Below are positions 26,636 to 33,596 of a stretch of DNA of 64,000 nucleotides, in pieces. Numbering within the stretch: the first letter of the stretch is position 1; each line of letters starts with the position of its first letter. The notes beneath the pieces are model-generated. The model searched no databases. It had not been told where the DNA came from and saw only the letters and a list, made by a program, of their open reading frames with translations. Made by a program: the position numbers and the translations under genes. Where the stretch lies: NCBI GenBank assembly GCA_017396675.1, contig JAFQLB010000057.1, forward strand, positions 6,771-70,770, given 5' to 3'. Origin of the DNA: Lachnospiraceae bacterium (GTDB taxonomy: Bacteria; Bacillota; Clostridia; Lachnospirales; Lachnospiraceae).

Positions 26636-27904
26636 ATGAACTTTAGTAAAGTCAAAGGGATGATCATACTTTCTTTCCTGTTTATGCTGGGGATCTGCAG
26701 CCGCCCCCTGCAGTGTCATGCCATGGAAGAAGAGAGCCTTCCGCAAGAGGCACTGTATGCCGGAGCGGCGGTGCTGATGGACGGAGTCAGCGGGAGAATA
26801 CTGTATGAAAAAAACGGAGAGGAGTTTCTCTCCAATGCCAGTACCACAAAAATTCTGACCTGTATTCTGGCGCTGGAGGAGGGGAGAATGCAGGATTTGG
26901 TCACGGTATCTGCCTATGCGGCCTCCATGCCGGATGTACAGCTGAATATCCGGGAAGGAGAGCGGTATCTGCTTAAGGATCTTCTGTATTCCCTGATGCT
27001 GGAGTCTCACAACGACTCTGCTGTGGCAATTGCGGAGCATATCAGCGGCTCCATCGAAGCCTTTGCCGTTAAAATGAATGAAAAGGCGGCTGCCATCGGA
27101 TGTGAAAACACCTTTTTTGTAACCCCAAACGGACTGGACGGAACGGCCATGGTAACGCTGCCGGAGGGCACCCAGATACAAATGAGTCACGGAACCACCG
27201 CAAAAGACCTGGCTGCTATCATGCGTTATTGTATCCGTATTTCTCCTGCCAGAGAGGAGTTCTTAAAGATTACGAGAACACCATCTCACAGCTTTTCCTC
27301 CCAAAAGACGCAGGAGGGAGACCGTGTCCGATCCTTTTCCTGCTACAACAGAAATGCCTTTCTTTCCATGATGGAAGGGGCTTTGAGCGGAAAAACGGGA
27401 TTTACCAATAAAGCGGGATATTGCTATGTAGGAGCCCTGCGGCAGGGAGAGGAAGAGTATGTGATTGCATTGCTGGCCTGCGGCTGGCCCAACAATAAAA
27501 CCTACAAATGGAAGGATGCAAAAGCACTGTTTACTTACGGTCTTTCACAGTATGAATACATACCCTTCACGGAAGCGGAAGAAGACATTGGAGAAATGAC
27601 GGCAGTGGAGGTGGAAAGGGGACAGACAAAAGGCTTGGGAGAGTAGGCGGTAACCGGAATCTGTCGTGAGGCAATGGAGGGAGCGCCGGAGGGACTTGTG
27701 CTGAAGCAAGATGAAAGGCTCATTGCCAGAGCCCGACTGCAGCCGCTGAAGGCTCCTGTAGAGAAGGGACAGGAAGTGGGCAGGCTGCAGTACCTCCTGG
27801 GAGAAGAGGTGGTCAGAGAGGATCGTCTGTTGTCTGCCGAAGAGGTAAAAAAGATTGATTACGGCTGGTGTCTGAAACAGATAATCGATAAATTTCTTTT
27901 TTAA
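26636..27904 (+). pseudogene. D-alanyl-D-alanine carboxypeptidase (S11, PBP5/DacB-like) interrupted by an in-frame TAG at 27644-27646
   Basis: Signal peptide, SxxK (NASTTK), SxN (ESHND) and KTG (GKTGFT) motifs lie in ORF 26636-27646. ORF 27674-27904 is in the same frame and encodes the rest of the PBP5 C-terminal domain (LKAPVEKGQEVGRLQYLL). Confidence 0.6.
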
Positions 27905-28032
27905 ATCCAGTTAAGATTCGCAATAATTCTTTCTATTTGACAAAATATGTGTTATACTGACTTCATGCGGGTTATCCTCCCGCAATAGGAGTTATTTATC
28001 AGCTATAATTATAATAAATGGAGGTCCTAAAG

Positions 28033-29463
28033 ATGAGTAATTCTACGCTTGCGAGACAGAGAATTCTCGCTCTGCTCGATGAGAACAGTTTCGTGGAAAT
28101 CGGTGCTCTTGTAACTGCCAGAGCTACGGATTTCAATTTGAAACAAACGAAGGCTCCCTCGGACGGCGTGATCACCGGCTACGGAGTTATCGACGGCAAT
28201 CCGGTGTATGTTTACAGCCAGGATGCGTCCGTATTGGGCGGAAGCATCGGTGAGATGCACGGCAAGAAAATTGTAAAGCTGTATGATCTGGCGATGAAAA
28301 CGGGTGCTCCCGTCATCGGTTTGATTGATTCTGCCGGACTCAGACTGCAGGAGGCGACAGATGCCCTTAATGCCTTTGGAGAAGTGTATCTGAAGCAGAC
28401 ATTGGCCTCGGGTGTGATTCCCCAGATTACGGCTGTCTTTGGAAGCTGCGGCGGCGGTCTGGCACTGATTCCTGCACTGACAGACTTTACCTTTATGGAG
28501 AAAACAAAGGCAAAGCTGTTTGTTAACGCACCCAATACACTGAACGGCAACGAGATCTCCAGATGTGATACCTCATCGGCAGACTTCCAGAGTGAGAAAA
28601 CAGGTCTTGTGGATGTGGCGGATGAAGAGGCACAGCTGTATGCACAGATCCGCGAGCTGGTAGGTATGCTGCCCTGCAATAACGAGGAGGACGGCGCCTA
28701 CGATGTATGCAGTGATGATCTGAACCGTCTCTGTCCCGATCTGGCAGGCTGCGCAGCGGATGCTGTGCTTGCTTTGTCAAGGATCGCAGACGATTTCAGA
28801 TTCTTTGAAACAAAAAGAAGTTATGCGGAAGAAATGGTAACGGGATTTTTGAAATTAAACGGCGTTACGGTGGGAGCCGTAGCCAATCGTACCTGCAAAT
28901 ACGACGAACAGGGAGAAAAAGCCTGTGAATTTGATCCCGTATTGACGGTACGGGGCTGCTATAAGGCAGCAGAGTTTGTAAACTTCTGTGATGCCTTTGG
29001 GATTCCCGTTCTGACCTTGACCAATGTTAAGGGATTCCGGGCAGATATCTGCTCCGAGAGAAATATTGCCAGAGCAGCCGCCAAGATGGTATACGCATTT
29101 GCCAATGCCACGGTGCCCAAGGTCAATGTAATTACAGGCAGTGCTTACGGCAGCGGTTATGTGGTTATGAATTCCCGCAGTATCGGAGCGGATATGACCT
29201 TTGCGTGGCCGGAGGCTCAGATCGGAACAATGGACGCCAGGCTGGCAGCCAGGATTATTTGCGACGGTCAGGGAGCGGAAGCCATTGAGACCTGTGCCAA
29301 AGAATATGCAAAGCTTCAGAACAATGCAGAAAGTGCGGCGGGGAGAGGGTATATCGATACCATAATCGCTCCGGAAGAGACGAGAAAATATGTGATCGGT
29401 GCTTTTGAAATGTTGTTTACAAAGAAGGAAGAACGCCCGGTGAAAAAGCACGGTACAGTATAG
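28033..29463 (+). CDS. Acyl-CoA carboxyltransferase (methylmalonyl-CoA decarboxylase alpha / 12S-like)
   Basis: Carboxyl-transferase family blocks are present (DGVITGYGVIDGNPVYVYSQDASVLGGSIGEMHGKKI, IGLIDSAGLRLQE, IPQITAVFGSCGGGLA). ATG 28033 lies 8 nt after GGAGG. Confidence 0.85.
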   Translation: MSNSTLARQRILALLDENSFVEIGALVTARATDFNLKQTKAPSDGVITGYGVIDGNPVYVYSQDASVLGGSIGEMHGKKIVKLYDLAMKTGAPVIGLIDSAGLRLQEATDALNAFGEVYLKQTLASGVIPQITAVFGSCGGGLALIPALTDFTFMEKTKAKLFVNAPNTLNGNEISRCDTSSADFQSEKTGLVDVADEEAQLYAQIRELVGMLPCNNEEDGAYDVCSDDLNRLCPDLAGCAADAVLALSRIADDFRFFETKRSYAEEMVTGFLKLNGVTVGAVANRTCKYDEQGEKACEFDPVLTVRGCYKAAEFVNFCDAFGIPVLTLTNVKGFRADICSERNIARAAAKMVYAFANATVPKVNVITGSAYGSGYVVMNSRSIGADMTFAWPEAQIGTMDARLAARIICDGQGAEAIETCAKEYAKLQNNAESAAGRGYIDTIIAPEETRKYVIGAFEMLFTKKEERPVKKHGTV

Positions 29464-29480
29464 AAAGGATGATACTTAAT

Positions 29481-30203
29481 ATGAAAAAACTGATATTAAT
29501 ATTAGGTATGATTGCCTGTATGATCGGCCTTGCGGCCTGCGGCGGAACTGCCGAAGAAACGGAAACCTTCGGGATGACGGAAGAGATCGCCGCCACGCTG
29601 GCGGAAGGTGTGGTGGCAGACATGAACACGATCGTTACTTCCGGAGGGCAGGCACAGTATGAAAGCGATCCGGTGATCCTTTCGGCATTGAACAGCTGGG
29701 AAGCAGCATTGGCGGAGATAGGAGAGCTGCAGTCCGTGAACGGTCATGAAGTAACCTATCAAAACGACGGTGTTATCGTTTTGGTAAGTGTCAGCGGAAT
29801 GAAGAAGGATGCGGAGGTAGAGATCATTCTGGATGAGGATCTGATGTATACCTCCATTACCACCAACGTGATTTATACCTTGCAGGAAACCATGGTGAAG
29901 GCTGCCATGAATACGCTGCTCGGTATGGGAACCGTGTTTGCGGTCTTGATTCTGATCAGCCTGATTATCTCCTGCTTTGGATTCATTCCAAAGATACAGG
30001 AAACCTTCCGTAAGAAGGCAAAGCCGGTGGCAGAGAGTGTTCCGGTATCCGTACCTGCGGTGGAGACATTGCAGACGATTCAGCCGCCTGCCGGCGACAA
30101 TCCGGAATTGATTGCGGTGATTGCAGCTGCCATCGCAGCAAGCGAAGGTGCTGCTTCGGCGGATGGATATGTGGTAAGAAGTATCAGAAGAAGAAACAGA
30201 TAG
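29481..30203 (+). CDS. OadG-type gamma subunit with an extra N-terminal lipoprotein domain
   Basis: A lipoprotein signal (LILGMIACMIGLAACGG) precedes a roughly 125-aa domain. An OadG-like helix follows (LLGMGTVFAVLILISLIISCF), then an Ala-rich tail (IAVIAAAIAASEGA). Confidence 0.7.
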   Translation: MKKLILILGMIACMIGLAACGGTAEETETFGMTEEIAATLAEGVVADMNTIVTSGGQAQYESDPVILSALNSWEAALAEIGELQSVNGHEVTYQNDGVIVLVSVSGMKKDAEVEIILDEDLMYTSITTNVIYTLQETMVKAAMNTLLGMGTVFAVLILISLIISCFGFIPKIQETFRKKAKPVAESVPVSVPAVETLQTIQPPAGDNPELIAVIAAAIAASEGAASADGYVVRSIRRRNR

Positions 30204-30235
30204 AACCGTAAAACAGTAGAAAAAGGAGAATGAAA

Positions 30236-30619
30236 ATGAAAAATTATACCATTACCGTAAATGGCAACGTATACGATGTTGTAGTAGAAGAAAAAGCCGG
30301 ACAGGCAGCCTCTCCGGCAGCTTCCATTCCCGTGGCAAGACCTGCCGCTGCGCCCGCTCCGGCGCCCGCTCCGGCGGCACCGGCATCGGCTCCTTCTGCA
30401 GCCGGTGGTATTCGTGTGGAAGCAGGAGCCGCAGGCAAAATCTTCAAGCTGGAAGCTTCTGTGGGACAGGCGGTGAAGAAAGGTGATGCCGTAGTGATTC
30501 TGGAAGCCATGAAGATGGAAATTCCCGTTGTAGCTCCCGAAGACGGAACGGTAGCCAGTATCGAAGTGTCAGTAGGCGATGCTGTGGAGGCAGGAGCATT
30601 ACTGGCAACCCTAAACTAG
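30236..30619 (+). CDS. Biotin carboxyl carrier protein
   Basis: An Ala/Pro-rich linker precedes the biotinylation motif EAMKME. ATG 30236 has better spacing to AAGGAG than ATG 30230. Confidence 0.88.
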   Translation: MKNYTITVNGNVYDVVVEEKAGQAASPAASIPVARPAAAPAPAPAPAAPASAPSAAGGIRVEAGAAGKIFKLEASVGQAVKKGDAVVILEAMKMEIPVVAPEDGTVASIEVSVGDAVEAGALLATLN

Positions 30620-30651
30620 TCCCGTTTATATTCTGATAGGAGGTCAACGTA

Positions 30652-31803
30652 ATGGGATACATAGAAACGACATTGGGAAATCTGCTGCATCAGACGGCCT
30701 TTTTTAACCTTACCGTCGGCAATTATATTATGATTGCGGTGGCATGTATTTTCCTGTATCTGGCAATCAGAAAGGAGTATGAGCCTCTTTTGCTGGTACC
30801 GATTGCCTTCGGTATGCTGCTGGTGAATATCTATCCCGATATCATGCTGCATATTGAGGATTCTGCAAACGGTGTAGGCGGTTTGCTGTATTATTTCTAT
30901 TTATTGGATGAATGGGCAATTCTTCCCTCCCTTATCTTTATGGGGGTGGGAGCCATGACGGACTTCGGTCCTCTGATTGCCAATCCAAAGAGCTTTTTGC
31001 TGGGAGCTGCGGCTCAGTTCGGTATTTATGCCGCCTATTTTCTGGCAATCTTCATGGGATTTAATGACAAGGCAGCTGCAGCCATCTCTATCATCGGAGG
31101 CGCTGACGGACCTACCTCCATCTTTCTGGCAAGTAAGCTGGAGCAGACGGCCCTGCTGGGACCGATTGCGGTAGCGGCCTATTCTTACATGGCGCTGGTG
31201 CCGATCATTCAGCCCCCCATCATGAAGCTTCTGACGACGGAGAAGGAGCGTAAGATAAAAATGGAGCAGCTTCGGCCTGTGTCCAAGATGGAGAGAATTC
31301 TCTTTCCCATCATTGTTACCATTGTGGTTTGTCTGATTCTTCCTACAACGGCGCCTCTGGTAGGTATGCTGATGCTGGGCAACCTCTTCCGTGAATCCGG
31401 CGTGGTACGCCAGCTGACGGAGACGGCATCCAATGCGATGATGTATATTGTGGTGATCCTGCTGGGTACCAGCGTGGGTGCCACTACCAGTGCGGAAGCA
31501 TTTTTGAATATGGATACCATTAAGATCGTGATTCTGGGTCTGGTGGCCTTTGCCTTTGGTACAGCAGCGGGAACACTTTTCGGTAAACTGATGTGTGTGG
31601 TCACCAAGGGTAAGGTGAATCCGCTGATCGGTTCTGCCGGTGTATCTGCGGTACCCATGGCTGCCCGTGTATCCCAGAAGGTGGGAGCGGAAGCAGACCC
31701 TACCAATTTCCTGCTGATGCATGCCATGGGACCTAATGTAGCAGGTGTTATTGGTACGGCTGTTGCTGCAGGCACCTTTATGGCCATATTCGGAGTAATG
31801 TAA
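30652..31803 (+). CDS. Sodium ion-translocating decarboxylase beta subunit
   Basis: 383-aa polytopic protein with OadB/MmdB/GcdB-type blocks (GAMTDFGPL, IIGGADGPT, GSAGVSAVPMAARV). Confidence 0.92.
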   Translation: MGYIETTLGNLLHQTAFFNLTVGNYIMIAVACIFLYLAIRKEYEPLLLVPIAFGMLLVNIYPDIMLHIEDSANGVGGLLYYFYLLDEWAILPSLIFMGVGAMTDFGPLIANPKSFLLGAAAQFGIYAAYFLAIFMGFNDKAAAAISIIGGADGPTSIFLASKLEQTALLGPIAVAAYSYMALVPIIQPPIMKLLTTEKERKIKMEQLRPVSKMERILFPIIVTIVVCLILPTTAPLVGMLMLGNLFRESGVVRQLTETASNAMMYIVVILLGTSVGATTSAEAFLNMDTIKIVILGLVAFAFGTAAGTLFGKLMCVVTKGKVNPLIGSAGVSAVPMAARVSQKVGAEADPTNFLLMHAMGPNVAGVIGTAVAAGTFMAIFGVM

Positions 31804-31824
31804 AACAGAAGGAGGAAACAGGAT

Positions 31825-33252
31825 ATGTCAGAACAAGTGAAAAAACCCATCGGTATTACCGAGACAATACTGCGTGACGCCCATCAGTCTCTGATCGCCA
31901 CAAGAATGCCTACAGATATGATGCTGCCGATTCTTCAGAAAATGGATCGTGTGGGCTATCATTCCGTAGAGTGCTGGGGCGGTGCCACCTTTGATGCTTC
32001 CCTCAGATTCCTAAAGGAAGATCCCTGGGAGCGTCTGAGAAAGATCAGAGAGGGATTTAAGAATACAAAGCTGCAGATGCTGTTTAGAGGACAGAATATT
32101 CTGGGATACCGTCCCTATGCAGATGATGTGGTATATAATTTTGTAGAGAAATCCATTGCAAACGGTATCGATATCATCCGTATTTTTGACTGCCTCAATG
32201 ATCTGCGTAACCTTCAGGCGGCGGTAGACGGTACCAATAAGATCAAGGTTCGCGAAGGAAGAGGCCATGCTCAGATCGCACTTTCCTATACACTGGGTGA
32301 TGCCTATACGCTGGAATACTGGACCACGATGGCCAAGAGAATTGAAGAAATGGGCGCAGATTCCATTTGTATCAAGGATATGGCAGGACTTTTGGTGCCT
32401 TACAAGGCCACGGAGATGATATCTGCCATGAAGAGTGTAACGAAGCTGCCGATTCAGCTTCACACTCATTATACCTCCGGTGTAGCCAGCATGACGTATC
32501 TGAAGGCTGTGGAGGCAGGTGTGGATGTGATCGACTGTGCAATCTCCCCGTTTGCGCTGGGAACCTCTCAGCCTGCAACGGAGGTCATGGCGGAAACCTT
32601 CAAGGGAACACCCTACGATCCCGGCTTTGATCAGAATCTTCTGGCGGAGATTGCGGATTATTTCAGACCCTACAGAGATGAGTCTCTTGCCAGCGGTCTG
32701 CTGAATCCCAAGGTTATGGGTGTGGATATCAAGACACTGCTGTATCAGGTGCCCGGTGGTATGCTCTCCAATATGGTAAGCCAGCTTAAGGAGCAGAATG
32801 CAGAGGATAAGTATTATGATGTGTTGAGGGAGATCCCGAGAGTGCGTAAGGATCTGGGAGATCCCCCGCTGGTAACGCCTTCCTCCCAGATTGTAGGAAC
32901 ACAGGCGGTATTCAATGTCCTGATGGGTGAGAGATACAAAATGGCCACAAAGGAAACCAAGGCGATGCTGAGAGGAGAGTATGGCCAGACGGTGAATCCC
33001 ATGAGCCAGGAAGTCATCGATAAGGTAATTCCGGGAGAAGAGAGAATTACCTGTCGTCCGGCAGATATGATTGAGAATGAGATGGATAAGCTGGAGGCAG
33101 AGATGAAGGAATGGAAGCAGCAGGATGAGGATGTCCTGTCCTATGCGCTGTTCCCTCAGGTGGCCGTTGACTTCTTCAAATATCGTCAGGCACAGCAGGA
33201 GAAGATGGATATGACCCAGGCAGATACGAAAAATGCGGCTTATCCCGTATAA
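31825..33252 (+). CDS. Oxaloacetate decarboxylase alpha / pyruvate carboxyltransferase (5S-like), without a biotinyl domain
   Basis: The N-terminus ITETILRDAHQSLIATRM and the block KDMAGLL are present. The protein ends after the association domain with no AMKM motif. Confidence 0.88.
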   Translation: MSEQVKKPIGITETILRDAHQSLIATRMPTDMMLPILQKMDRVGYHSVECWGGATFDASLRFLKEDPWERLRKIREGFKNTKLQMLFRGQNILGYRPYADDVVYNFVEKSIANGIDIIRIFDCLNDLRNLQAAVDGTNKIKVREGRGHAQIALSYTLGDAYTLEYWTTMAKRIEEMGADSICIKDMAGLLVPYKATEMISAMKSVTKLPIQLHTHYTSGVASMTYLKAVEAGVDVIDCAISPFALGTSQPATEVMAETFKGTPYDPGFDQNLLAEIADYFRPYRDESLASGLLNPKVMGVDIKTLLYQVPGGMLSNMVSQLKEQNAEDKYYDVLREIPRVRKDLGDPPLVTPSSQIVGTQAVFNVLMGERYKMATKETKAMLRGEYGQTVNPMSQEVIDKVIPGEERITCRPADMIENEMDKLEAEMKEWKQQDEDVLSYALFPQVAVDFFKYRQAQQEKMDMTQADTKNAAYPV

Positions 33253-33276
33253 AGCACAACATTAAATCTTGATTTA

Positions 33277-33325
33277 AAAGCGAGGCGCAAAGGATTTGGA
33301 TAATCTCTTGTACCTCGCTTTTTCA
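33277..33325 (+). terminator. Possible terminator after the decarboxylase operon
   Basis: AAAGCGAGG pairs with CCTCGCTTT around a large 27-nt loop and is followed by TTTC. This is a weak call. Confidence 0.4.
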
Positions 33326-33596
33326 TATAAGGAGACGCTCTGTGTTTTGGAAAGGAGAGTGTGGAATACAATAATAACAGATGGGATTATATAAATTAAA
33401 TCAAAAAATAATGCAAGGTTTTTCTGTGGATGCGGGTTGACAAATAGGGAATATAATAGTAAAATAACATACGTTACCAACATTGATTGTGGGGTGGCTT
33501 CATCATTTTATTATCCTGCAATGCTATGGTTTTATGGATTTGTACACGTTTTACACAGCGATGAAGGCTTGAAAGGAGCCGGAAAGGCAGGTTTGT

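Follow-up and report, generated by a model that had tools for sequence, protein, structure and literature searches.

We analysed a 64,000-nucleotide (nt) stretch of DNA from a Lachnospiraceae bacterium (contig JAFQLB010000057.1, positions 6,771 to 70,770; hereafter the window), in which an open reading frame (ORF) listing and profile searches place five co-directional genes on the + strand between 28033 and 33252. They encode, in order, a diverged acyl-CoA carboxyltransferase (CT), an OadG-like protein, a free biotin carboxyl carrier protein (BCCP), the beta subunit OadB, and an OadA that has no biotinyl domain, and are separated by gaps of 17, 26, 32, and 21 nt. The explanation that we favour, with a probability of roughly 0.55, is that the five genes form a single operon encoding an oxaloacetate decarboxylase (OAD) of the Firmicute split-alpha kind, which depends on biotin and translocates Na+ and in which the CT is mainly structural; considered separately, an oxaloacetate-driven Na+ pump is very probably the main function. 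A first-pass annotation had described two different carboxyltransferases with one biotin carrier and one beta subunit, a stand-alone carrier with an EAMKME motif, and a 5S/OadA-like protein without its own biotinyl domain; the profile searches bear out each of these points, with all five genes in the order given there. Because two carboxyltransferases, one carrier, and one beta subunit occur as a conserved unit, a complex built on a shared carrier is the natural reading, and we infer complex formation, the direction of flux, and a structural role for the present CT from comparisons of sequence and gene content.

Three features that typify an OAD, namely the OadB motifs, an alpha-subunit TIM barrel with its ligands, and an OadG-type anchor, are all present. 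OadB (30652 to 31803, + strand, 383 amino acids [aa]) is an OadB/MmdB-type beta subunit and the predicted carboxybiotin decarboxylase and Na+ pump; it matches PF03977 at 519 bits and TIGR01109 at 482 bits (cut-off 190.6), aligns to Salmonella OadB (6iva) at 2e-115, and conserves the GGADGPT, GVSAVP, AARVS, and MGPNVAG motifs. OadA (31825 to 33252, + strand, 475 aa) is of the OadA/5S type of oxaloacetate-pyruvate carboxyltransferase (PYC_OADA, 191 bits), passes the NCBIfam short-OadA model NF008985 (730.6 bits; cut-off 718), and matches both the carboxyltransferase domain of Vibrio cholerae OadA (2nx9, 2e-144) and the transcarboxylase 5S subunit (1rqb, 4e-126), with the catalytic D18, K184, H213, and H215 (metal and carbamyl-lysine ligands) retained. 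It has neither an association domain nor a biotinyl domain, and is thus not the classical fused alpha subunit of the Vibrio/Klebsiella form. The only biotinyl domain in the operon is that of the free carrier (30230 to 30619, + strand, 129 aa; PF00364, Biotin_lipoyl, 64 bits), a protein of the MmdC/1.3S/GcdC type whose N-terminus bears an anchor motif, YTITVNGNVYDVVVEE, and which continues through an Ala/Pro linker to the biotinyl-lysine K95 within EAMKME; its best NCBIfam match is MmdC (NF047903), at 98 bits and under the cut-off of 200.

The OadG/MmdD-type membrane anchor (29481 to 30203, + strand, 240 aa) matches PF04277 at 76 bits over residues 144-225 and narrowly passes TIGR01195 (37 bits; cut-off 36.05). 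A lipoprotein-type signal ending in LAAC comes first, followed by an extracytoplasmic alpha+beta domain (about 100 aa), a single transmembrane helix, an Ala/Pro linker, and finally a C-terminal tail, ELIAVIAAAIAA...VVRSIRR, that is conserved; among 25 orthologues, no variation occurs in C20, in the transmembrane segment, or in this tail. An AlphaFold2 model gives residues 34-130 a predicted local distance difference test (pLDDT) score > 90 and places the transmembrane helix at 134-166; the modelled domain, within residues 1-140 (29481-29900), should face outward. The N-terminal domain of about 100 residues has no Pfam match, and a fold search with the extracytoplasmic domain returned weak NTF2-like/DUF3887 matches (E >= 0.01), including 4hyz, a DUF3887 protein of Ruminococcus gnavus, at a TM score of 0.62 on the target and E = 0.026. 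The OadG of other Clostridia families is just 117-130 aa long.

These parts suggest a plausible working scheme in which OadA would transfer the carboxyl group of oxaloacetate to the biotin of the free carrier, the carrier would swing to OadB, and carboxybiotin would there be decarboxylated with export of Na+, while OadG would tether the soluble head to the membrane. In the window genome, decarboxylation of oxaloacetate to pyruvate and CO2, with Na+ export coupled to it, would then be the main reaction. The operon can be seen as laid out like a methylmalonyl-CoA decarboxylase (Mmd; alpha-delta-gamma-beta) with OadA appended last, and the CT would most likely be a core or anchoring subunit of the head, with acetyl-CoA/malonyl-CoA transfer auxiliary at most. 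The mmdADCB order, the MmdC/GcdC-type anchor and linker of the carrier, and the conserved OadG tail together suggest, by analogy, that the CT is the subunit held by that tail; the same anchor arrangement has been proposed in a model of Gcd (PMC7145394). The short OadA is without an association domain of its own.

The operon is not confined to the window. The order CT-G-BCCP-B-A (G, B, and A being OadG, OadB, and OadA) is the same in all 80 species-representative Lachnospiraceae loci wherever the contig reaches far enough, spanning Blautia, Dorea, Faecalicatena, Faecalimonas, Mediterraneibacter, Butyrivibrio, Parablautia, Acetatifactor, and others; the full gene set, always including OadA, is found in 80 further Lachnospiraceae genomes where the contig allows, and two metagenomic contigs give the same picture. 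Because the order is kept in every locus long enough to contain it, the arrangement is far from chance. Among 150 Lachnospiraceae genera represented by genomes at least 90% complete, a CT of this type (476-500 aa, 287-400 bits) occurs in about 127, conservatively at least 125, and OadB in 140; all ten genera without OadB are also without such a CT, these co-occurrence counts coming from related genomes without phylogenetic correction. Absences here and below are calls from profile searches of assemblies, many of them closed or at least 97% complete. The CT is intact in all of the approximately 160 Lachnospiraceae sequences. The operon is therefore close to a family-wide housekeeping feature, and not a peculiarity of one locus. 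An OAD complex is reported to be strongly expressed in the giant Lachnospiraceae bacterium Epulopiscium and to be pivotal to its sodium economy (PMC10756260).

The CT (28033 to 29463, + strand, 476 aa; PF01039, 363 bits) is the unusual component. Its start codon is supported by a GGAGG ribosome-binding site before the ATG at 28033 and by orthologues of 476 aa. It had been described as 12S/MmdA-like; it does belong to the PccB/12S/MmdA family, but at 420 bits against a cut-off of 998.8 for TIGR01117 it is not an MmdA equivalog. The best solved relatives are 1vrg, annotated as the Thermotoga maritima 'propionyl-CoA carboxylase beta' (1.6e-109), PccB (1e-104), and 12S (1on3, 3e-90). Membership of the GcdA group was considered and rejected, the GcdA structures matching partially at 1e-17 and 1e-13 as compared with 1e-105 to 1e-110 for PccB-type structures. 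Relative to PccB, about 40 N-terminal residues are absent and there is an insertion of about 10 residues, CKYDEQGEKACEF, at residue 288; the insertion is clade-specific. The oxyanion-hole glycines G141/G142 are kept, a GGA motif has become GSG, and the equivalent of PccB D422 is V, the T. maritima CT having I at this position.

The divergence extends across the Lachnospiraceae CT clade. Of 190 reference positions with a conservation of at least 95% among 20 canonical CTs (three of them Mmd-type), the 162 clade sequences keep the consensus at 116 (61%); 14 positions are fixed to a new residue (for example T206N, D375N, E217N, and A181G, in PccB numbering), 30 are intermediate, and 30 are variable. 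The residues that follow the acyl-CoA oxyanion-hole glycines have changed from GGAVYSPA to GGGLA(V/L)(V/I)P, both arginines of KAARFVR have changed, DVPGFLPG has become NVKGF..., and R414 and G419 (PccB numbering) have also changed. All 162 sequences conserve glycines 140-142 (GGG) and the AYG(S)(A/G)Y motif. The evolutionary rate of the CT is about 2.4 times that of OadB and OadA.

A plausible origin for this subunit emerges from other Clostridia. Across 250 sampled Clostridia genomes, identity to the window CT is 58-70% for Lachnospiraceae CTs and at most 46% for the CTs of all other families, which are 516-530 aa long. Within the order, several sister families have CTs at 49-59% identity. 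Eight genomes from other Lachnospirales families (G433, G442, G478, G434, G448, G468, G482, and G446) have shorter and weaker homologues (399-475 aa, 35-42% identical), which may descend from the same subunit and have degraded further. Outside the Lachnospiraceae, the contexts of 20 CT genes from 18 families, a small sample, fall into three layouts, each with a constant gene order: CT-(G)-BCCP-B-A (nine loci, seven families), CT-BCCP-A with no pump (eight loci, eight families), and CT-(G)-BCCP-B with no OadA (three loci, three families). The first-pass annotation had suggested that the window locus forms either a dual-substrate pump or a transcarboxylase able to feed carboxybiotin into the pump. 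The pump-less CT-BCCP-OadA clusters lend weight to the transcarboxylase element of that proposal, and it is methylmalonyl-CoA as the acyl partner that does not hold up.

The genomes bearing OadA-containing layouts have an unusual carboxylase content. Profile searches found no biotin-carboxylase domain in seven of the eight pump-less and seven of the nine five-gene genomes; of the two remaining five-gene genomes, one has a pyruvate carboxylase only and the other a classical AccC. FabD is present in 16 of the 17 OadA-containing genomes outside the Lachnospiraceae, and the operon CT is the sole Carboxyl_trans match in each of five closed genomes, all from different families. In total, 13 of the 17 OadA-containing loci from other Clostridia families lie in genomes that combine type II fatty-acid synthesis (FASII) with no biotin carboxylase and no other carboxyltransferase. 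Since malonyl-CoA is needed there and neither a biotin carboxylase nor AccA/AccD is found, CT-BCCP-OadA is the only visible route to it. The ancestral module was thus probably an oxaloacetate:acetyl-CoA transcarboxylase (oxaloacetate + acetyl-CoA -> pyruvate + malonyl-CoA) that works without ATP, and we infer the acetyl-CoA specificity of the ancestral CT from this gene content; in the five-gene form, the pump would provide a second outlet for carboxybiotin. There are precedents for such a route. Clostridium thermocellum is reported to be without a standard acetyl-CoA carboxylase (ACC), and a metabolic model of it recruits Clo1313_1523-1526 as a transcarboxylase for malonyl-CoA (PMC5414155), and formation of malonyl-CoA from oxaloacetate and acetyl-CoA by an Entamoeba transcarboxylase is given as demonstrated in a secondary source (cited in PMC8136499). 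In the control genome of T. maritima, FabD, Carboxyl_trans, OAD_beta, and PYC_OADA were matched and Biotin_carb_C and AccA were not, and this organism may also depend on an oxaloacetate-based malonyl-CoA route.

CT branch lengths track the set of carboxylases that a genome encodes. In a maximum-likelihood tree, the end branches are 0.07-0.42 for genomes with FabD and no AccC-type biotin carboxylase, 1.37 and 1.8 for two genomes with classical AccC, and 1.94 for one genome without FabD; the stem of the Lachnospiraceae clade is 0.52 (support 99/99). Within the Lachnospiraceae, AccA is found in 115 and FabD in 131 of the 150 genera. In the window genus the operon would not be the sole malonyl-CoA source, since 8 of 12 congeners carry FabD with AccC, AccD, and AccA beside it; congeners also have pyruvate carboxylase. 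The profile search found no AccA, AccC, AccD, or FabD in the window genome itself, a metagenome-assembled genome (MAG) that is 72% complete, and the presence of these genes in congeners indicates that their absence is an assembly gap. We envisage that the CT would have lost its essential role and diverged in Lachnospiraceae with classical AccABCD, and yet have been retained intact.

Retention of the CT does not follow fatty-acid synthesis. It is intact in 13 sampled Lachnospiraceae genera that are without both AccA and FabD, and also in several species of a further genus without biotin carboxylase; selection on the Lachnospiraceae CT is therefore independent of fatty-acid synthesis, and a structural role would explain why it is kept there. 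Malonyl-CoA supply as the main role of the Lachnospiraceae CT is rejected on these grounds, since most genera have AccA and the 13 genera without AccA and FabD keep the operon. The ratio of CT distance to OadB plus OadA distance is 2.66 in FASII-less genomes and 2.42 in the others (Mann-Whitney p = 0.003), or about 10% higher, in a comparison of related genomes in which the window genome was counted as FASII-less, probably wrongly. Relaxed selection on the CT in FASII-less lineages was set aside, given the small size of this effect.

One Lachnospiraceae genome, G149 (99% complete), departs from this pattern. It carries a cluster of acyl carrier protein (ACP), FabH, FabK, FabD, FabG, FabF, and FabZ genes, has neither biotin carboxylase nor AccA, and its diverged operon CT is its only carboxyltransferase. 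The FASII cluster (L088, G149:C11:18000-37999, and L089) also includes MarR and is flanked by no acc genes; FabD is absent from the five congeners of G149 that were checked, out of 12. A second candidate of this kind, G112, was dropped because its partial CT scores as canonical (409 bits over 356 model positions). Canonical PccB-type CTs (558-677 bits) were seen in 18 Lachnospiraceae genomes, 17 of them without AccA. The two whose loci were examined lie beside a FabD-like acyltransferase, one (L091, G020:C9) in a cluster with an AMP-ligase, ACP, double ketosynthase, ketoreductase, and dehydratase, and the other (L090, G038:C3) with a thiolase-like gene and a thioesterase; the profile search found no biotin carboxylase in G038. 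A place in the core FASII cluster was ruled out for these two canonical CTs, which sit in specialised AMP-ligase/ACP/ketosynthase clusters.

That the CT is mainly structural, with its activity auxiliary or lost, is an interpretation that we hold by a modest preponderance. Several observations count against it. A purely structural CT does not account for the conserved glycine triplet (140-142) and AYG(S)(A/G)Y motif; the gene content of G149 means that a diverged CT is arguably still malonyl-CoA-forming there; and the split OAD of Enterococcus faecalis has no such CT, so that assembly does not in general require one (PMC6193673). In addition, the genus also has an ATP-dependent pyruvate carboxylase, which together with the decarboxylase would create a futile ATP-to-Na+ cycle unless regulated, and both the small number of gene contexts outside the Lachnospiraceae and the uncorrected relatedness of the genomes behind the co-occurrence counts detract from the interpretation as a whole.

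The strongest alternative is a true hybrid, in which the CT is an active acetyl-CoA carboxyltransferase and carboxybiotin is split between Na+ export and malonyl-CoA formation, in parallel with classical ACC. The intact CT in about 160 sequences, its invariant oxyanion-hole glycines, and the hydrophobic residue at the D422 position, as in T. maritima, all fit such an enzyme, as does G149, which has FASII, no biotin carboxylase or ACC, and this CT alone; moreover, the canonical relatives very probably do exactly this. Under the favoured explanation as well, the conserved glycines and G149 leave room for a residual acetyl-CoA transfer activity. However, at least 13 genera without FabD and AccA keep the CT with its approximately 10% faster relative evolution, and 60 of the 190 family-conserved positions are intermediate or variable, including neighbours of the oxyanion hole, the KAARFVR arginines, and DVPGFLPG. 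Furthermore, about 75% of genera also have classical AccA, and G149 is one genome whose congeners are without FabD. We consider the hybrid unlikely in the window genome. A related and similarly doubtful proposal is a three-way carboxybiotin hub, in which the carrier would shuttle between OadA, CT, and OadB and divide the oxaloacetate carboxyl, part going to Na+ export and part to the carboxylation of acetyl-CoA without ATP. Since the pump can in principle run in reverse, a Na+ gradient could also drive an ATP-independent carboxylation of pyruvate and acetyl-CoA. If true, the hub would be the sole malonyl-CoA route in the biotin-carboxylase-less Clostridia and would operate beside classical ACC in the window genome.

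A different possibility is that the specificity of the CT has moved to another carboxylated CoA ester whose decarboxylation also drives OadB, giving a dual-substrate pump. Such re-tuning could account for the 14 canonical positions at which the whole clade has settled on another residue, for the clade-specific insertion and N-terminal truncation, and for retention independent of fatty-acid synthesis. It sits poorly with the flanking genes, which vary from locus to locus and include no conserved neighbour that would suggest a source of an acyl-CoA substrate, with the absence of methylmalonyl-CoA mutase from the 150 genera (see below), and with the finding that at least as many conserved positions turned variable as were fixed anew, which resembles relaxation more than re-tuning. 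We regard this dual-substrate pump as distinctly improbable.

The first-pass annotation had judged the locus to fit a succinate/propionate-type fermentation and had recommended a search of the genome for a mutase. This search gave no methylmalonyl-CoA mutase (PF01642) match in the window genome, with the caveat that this MAG has a completeness of 72%. The 150 Lachnospiraceae genera, represented by genomes of 90% completeness or above, were likewise without a match; the same profile gave matches in eight control genomes. Among the 20 other Clostridia genomes, the mutase is found solely in the three with the OadA-less operon, within a few kb of it, and in none of the 17 OadA-containing genomes. 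These OadA-less CT-(G)-BCCP-B operons adjoining a mutase are, as judged by gene content, genuine methylmalonyl-CoA decarboxylases (loci L181, L182, and L187). The genome with L187 (G177, on G177:C6) has FabD, no biotin carboxylase, and no OadA. The Lachnospiraceae operon differs from an Mmd locus in its CT score against the MmdA model, in the missing mutase, and in never being a four-gene operon, OadA always being fifth. A dual decarboxylase acting on methylmalonyl-CoA and oxaloacetate, or a transcarboxylase of the Propionibacterium type for succinate-to-propionate conversion, is therefore unsupported and very improbable despite the mmdA-D-C-B order of the first four genes, the family shared by the CT with MmdA and 12S, and the operon for malate dehydrogenase, fumarase, and fumarate reductase 8 kb downstream, with which it shares the oxaloacetate node alone.

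The boundaries of the operon can be placed with differing confidence. The gene upstream ends at 27904, and a possible extended -10 promoter element, TGTTATACT, lies at 27950 to 27958 on the + strand, 75 nt upstream of the CT start codon; this assignment is tentative and was read from the sequence by eye. A promoter scan found no consensus sigma-70 promoter upstream of the CT, and did not list the extended -10 because no good -35 hexamer is present. Downstream, a rho-independent terminator (33276 to 33327, + strand), recognised by RNA folding as a long hairpin followed by UUUUU, closes the operon; its folding energy is -24.7 kcal/mol compared with -12.6 +/- 2.9 for shuffled sequences (z = -4.19), and it was missed by a simple scan because that scan permits loops of 3-8 nt only.

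The window genome is a 1.8-Mb assembly in which profile searches find a single OAD_beta gene and a single Carboxyl_trans gene. The second PYC_OADA match in the assembly is a full-length pyruvate carboxylase (G000:C36:43298-48331, a 1168-aa frame), and a 569-aa frame at G000:C108:4882-6069 has a weak PEPCK_ATP match (62.6 bits). Immediately upstream of the operon is a gene for a PBP5-type D-Ala-D-Ala carboxypeptidase (26636-27904), which is split into a 336-aa ORF (Peptidase_S11) and a 76-aa ORF (PBP5_C), in agreement with the in-frame stop reported in the first-pass annotation; the syntenic carboxypeptidase is a single ORF of 406-414 aa in two related contigs.

Lachnospiraceae are among the most abundant gut bacteria, and at least 125 of the 150 genera sampled harbour the operon. 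The new elements of this study are the family-wide absence of the mutase, the series of three layouts tied to a missing biotin carboxylase, the contrast in branch lengths, and the retention of the CT in FASII-less lineages. If the proposed ancestry is correct, many Clostridia make malonyl-CoA from oxaloacetate without spending ATP, and those with the five-gene form could use the same carboxybiotin instead for a sodium gradient. Annotations of these genes as propionyl-CoA carboxylase, methylmalonyl-CoA decarboxylase, and oxaloacetate decarboxylase would then need to change, as would metabolic models of gut and cellulolytic Clostridia. The Lachnospiraceae CT would illustrate the fate of such a subunit once classical ACC is present, namely quick divergence without loss.

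Full-text literature searches returned no description of a sodium pump with both carboxyltransferases and no biochemical study of this operon, and comparison is thus with systems that share parts of it. The split-alpha OAD of E. faecalis consists of OadA, the biotin carrier OadD, OadB, and OadH (PMC6193673), and resembles the Lachnospiraceae operon in its biotin-less OadA, separate small carrier, OadB pump, and small membrane anchor. It differs in having no 12S/PccB-type CT and in sitting in a citrate-fermentation cluster (PMC6193673), whereas in the window a CT leads the operon, OadG has a lipoprotein domain, and no citrate lyase genes adjoin. The Mmd Na+ pump, comprising MmdA, MmdD, MmdC, and MmdB in Veillonella parvula and Propionigenium modestum according to a secondary account (cited in PMC7145394), is matched by the first four genes of the window operon in their order, by the superfamily of the CT, and by the carrier, which is MmdC-like and has both the N-terminal anchor and the Ala/Pro linker. 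Here, in contrast, OadA is added, the CT falls far under the MmdA cut-off, and no mutase is found in the Lachnospiraceae genera sampled.

The Propionibacterium methylmalonyl-CoA:pyruvate transcarboxylase likewise encodes together a 12S-type CT, a 5S-type CT, and a 1.3S-like carrier, but it is a soluble enzyme that merely exchanges carboxyl groups from one substrate to another and has no carboxybiotin decarboxylase, whereas OadB and OadG lie inside the Lachnospiraceae operon and the CT has diverged. For the clostridial family at large, acetyl-CoA is the probable acyl substrate and not propionyl-CoA. The CT, BCCP, and OadA module is shared with the C. thermocellum cluster, a putative transcarboxylase that is also labelled 'oxaloacetate decarboxylase' (Cthe_0699-0701, Clo1313_1523-1526; PMC5414155, PMC8303734, PMC3039559). 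In that organism, oxaloacetate decarboxylase activity was reportedly not detected (PMC8303734, PMC5414155), and the CT was located in the membrane fraction (PMC3039559). The window operon departs from this cluster in the presence of OadB and OadG, in belonging to a genus with classical ACC, and in its short and long-branch CT. Nonetheless, the pump-less module, as in C. thermocellum and, on the secondary citation given above, in the Entamoeba enzyme, offers the nearest functional parallel to the ancestor of the operon, and by this comparison the Lachnospiraceae CT looks like the leftover of an ATP-free machine for making malonyl-CoA.

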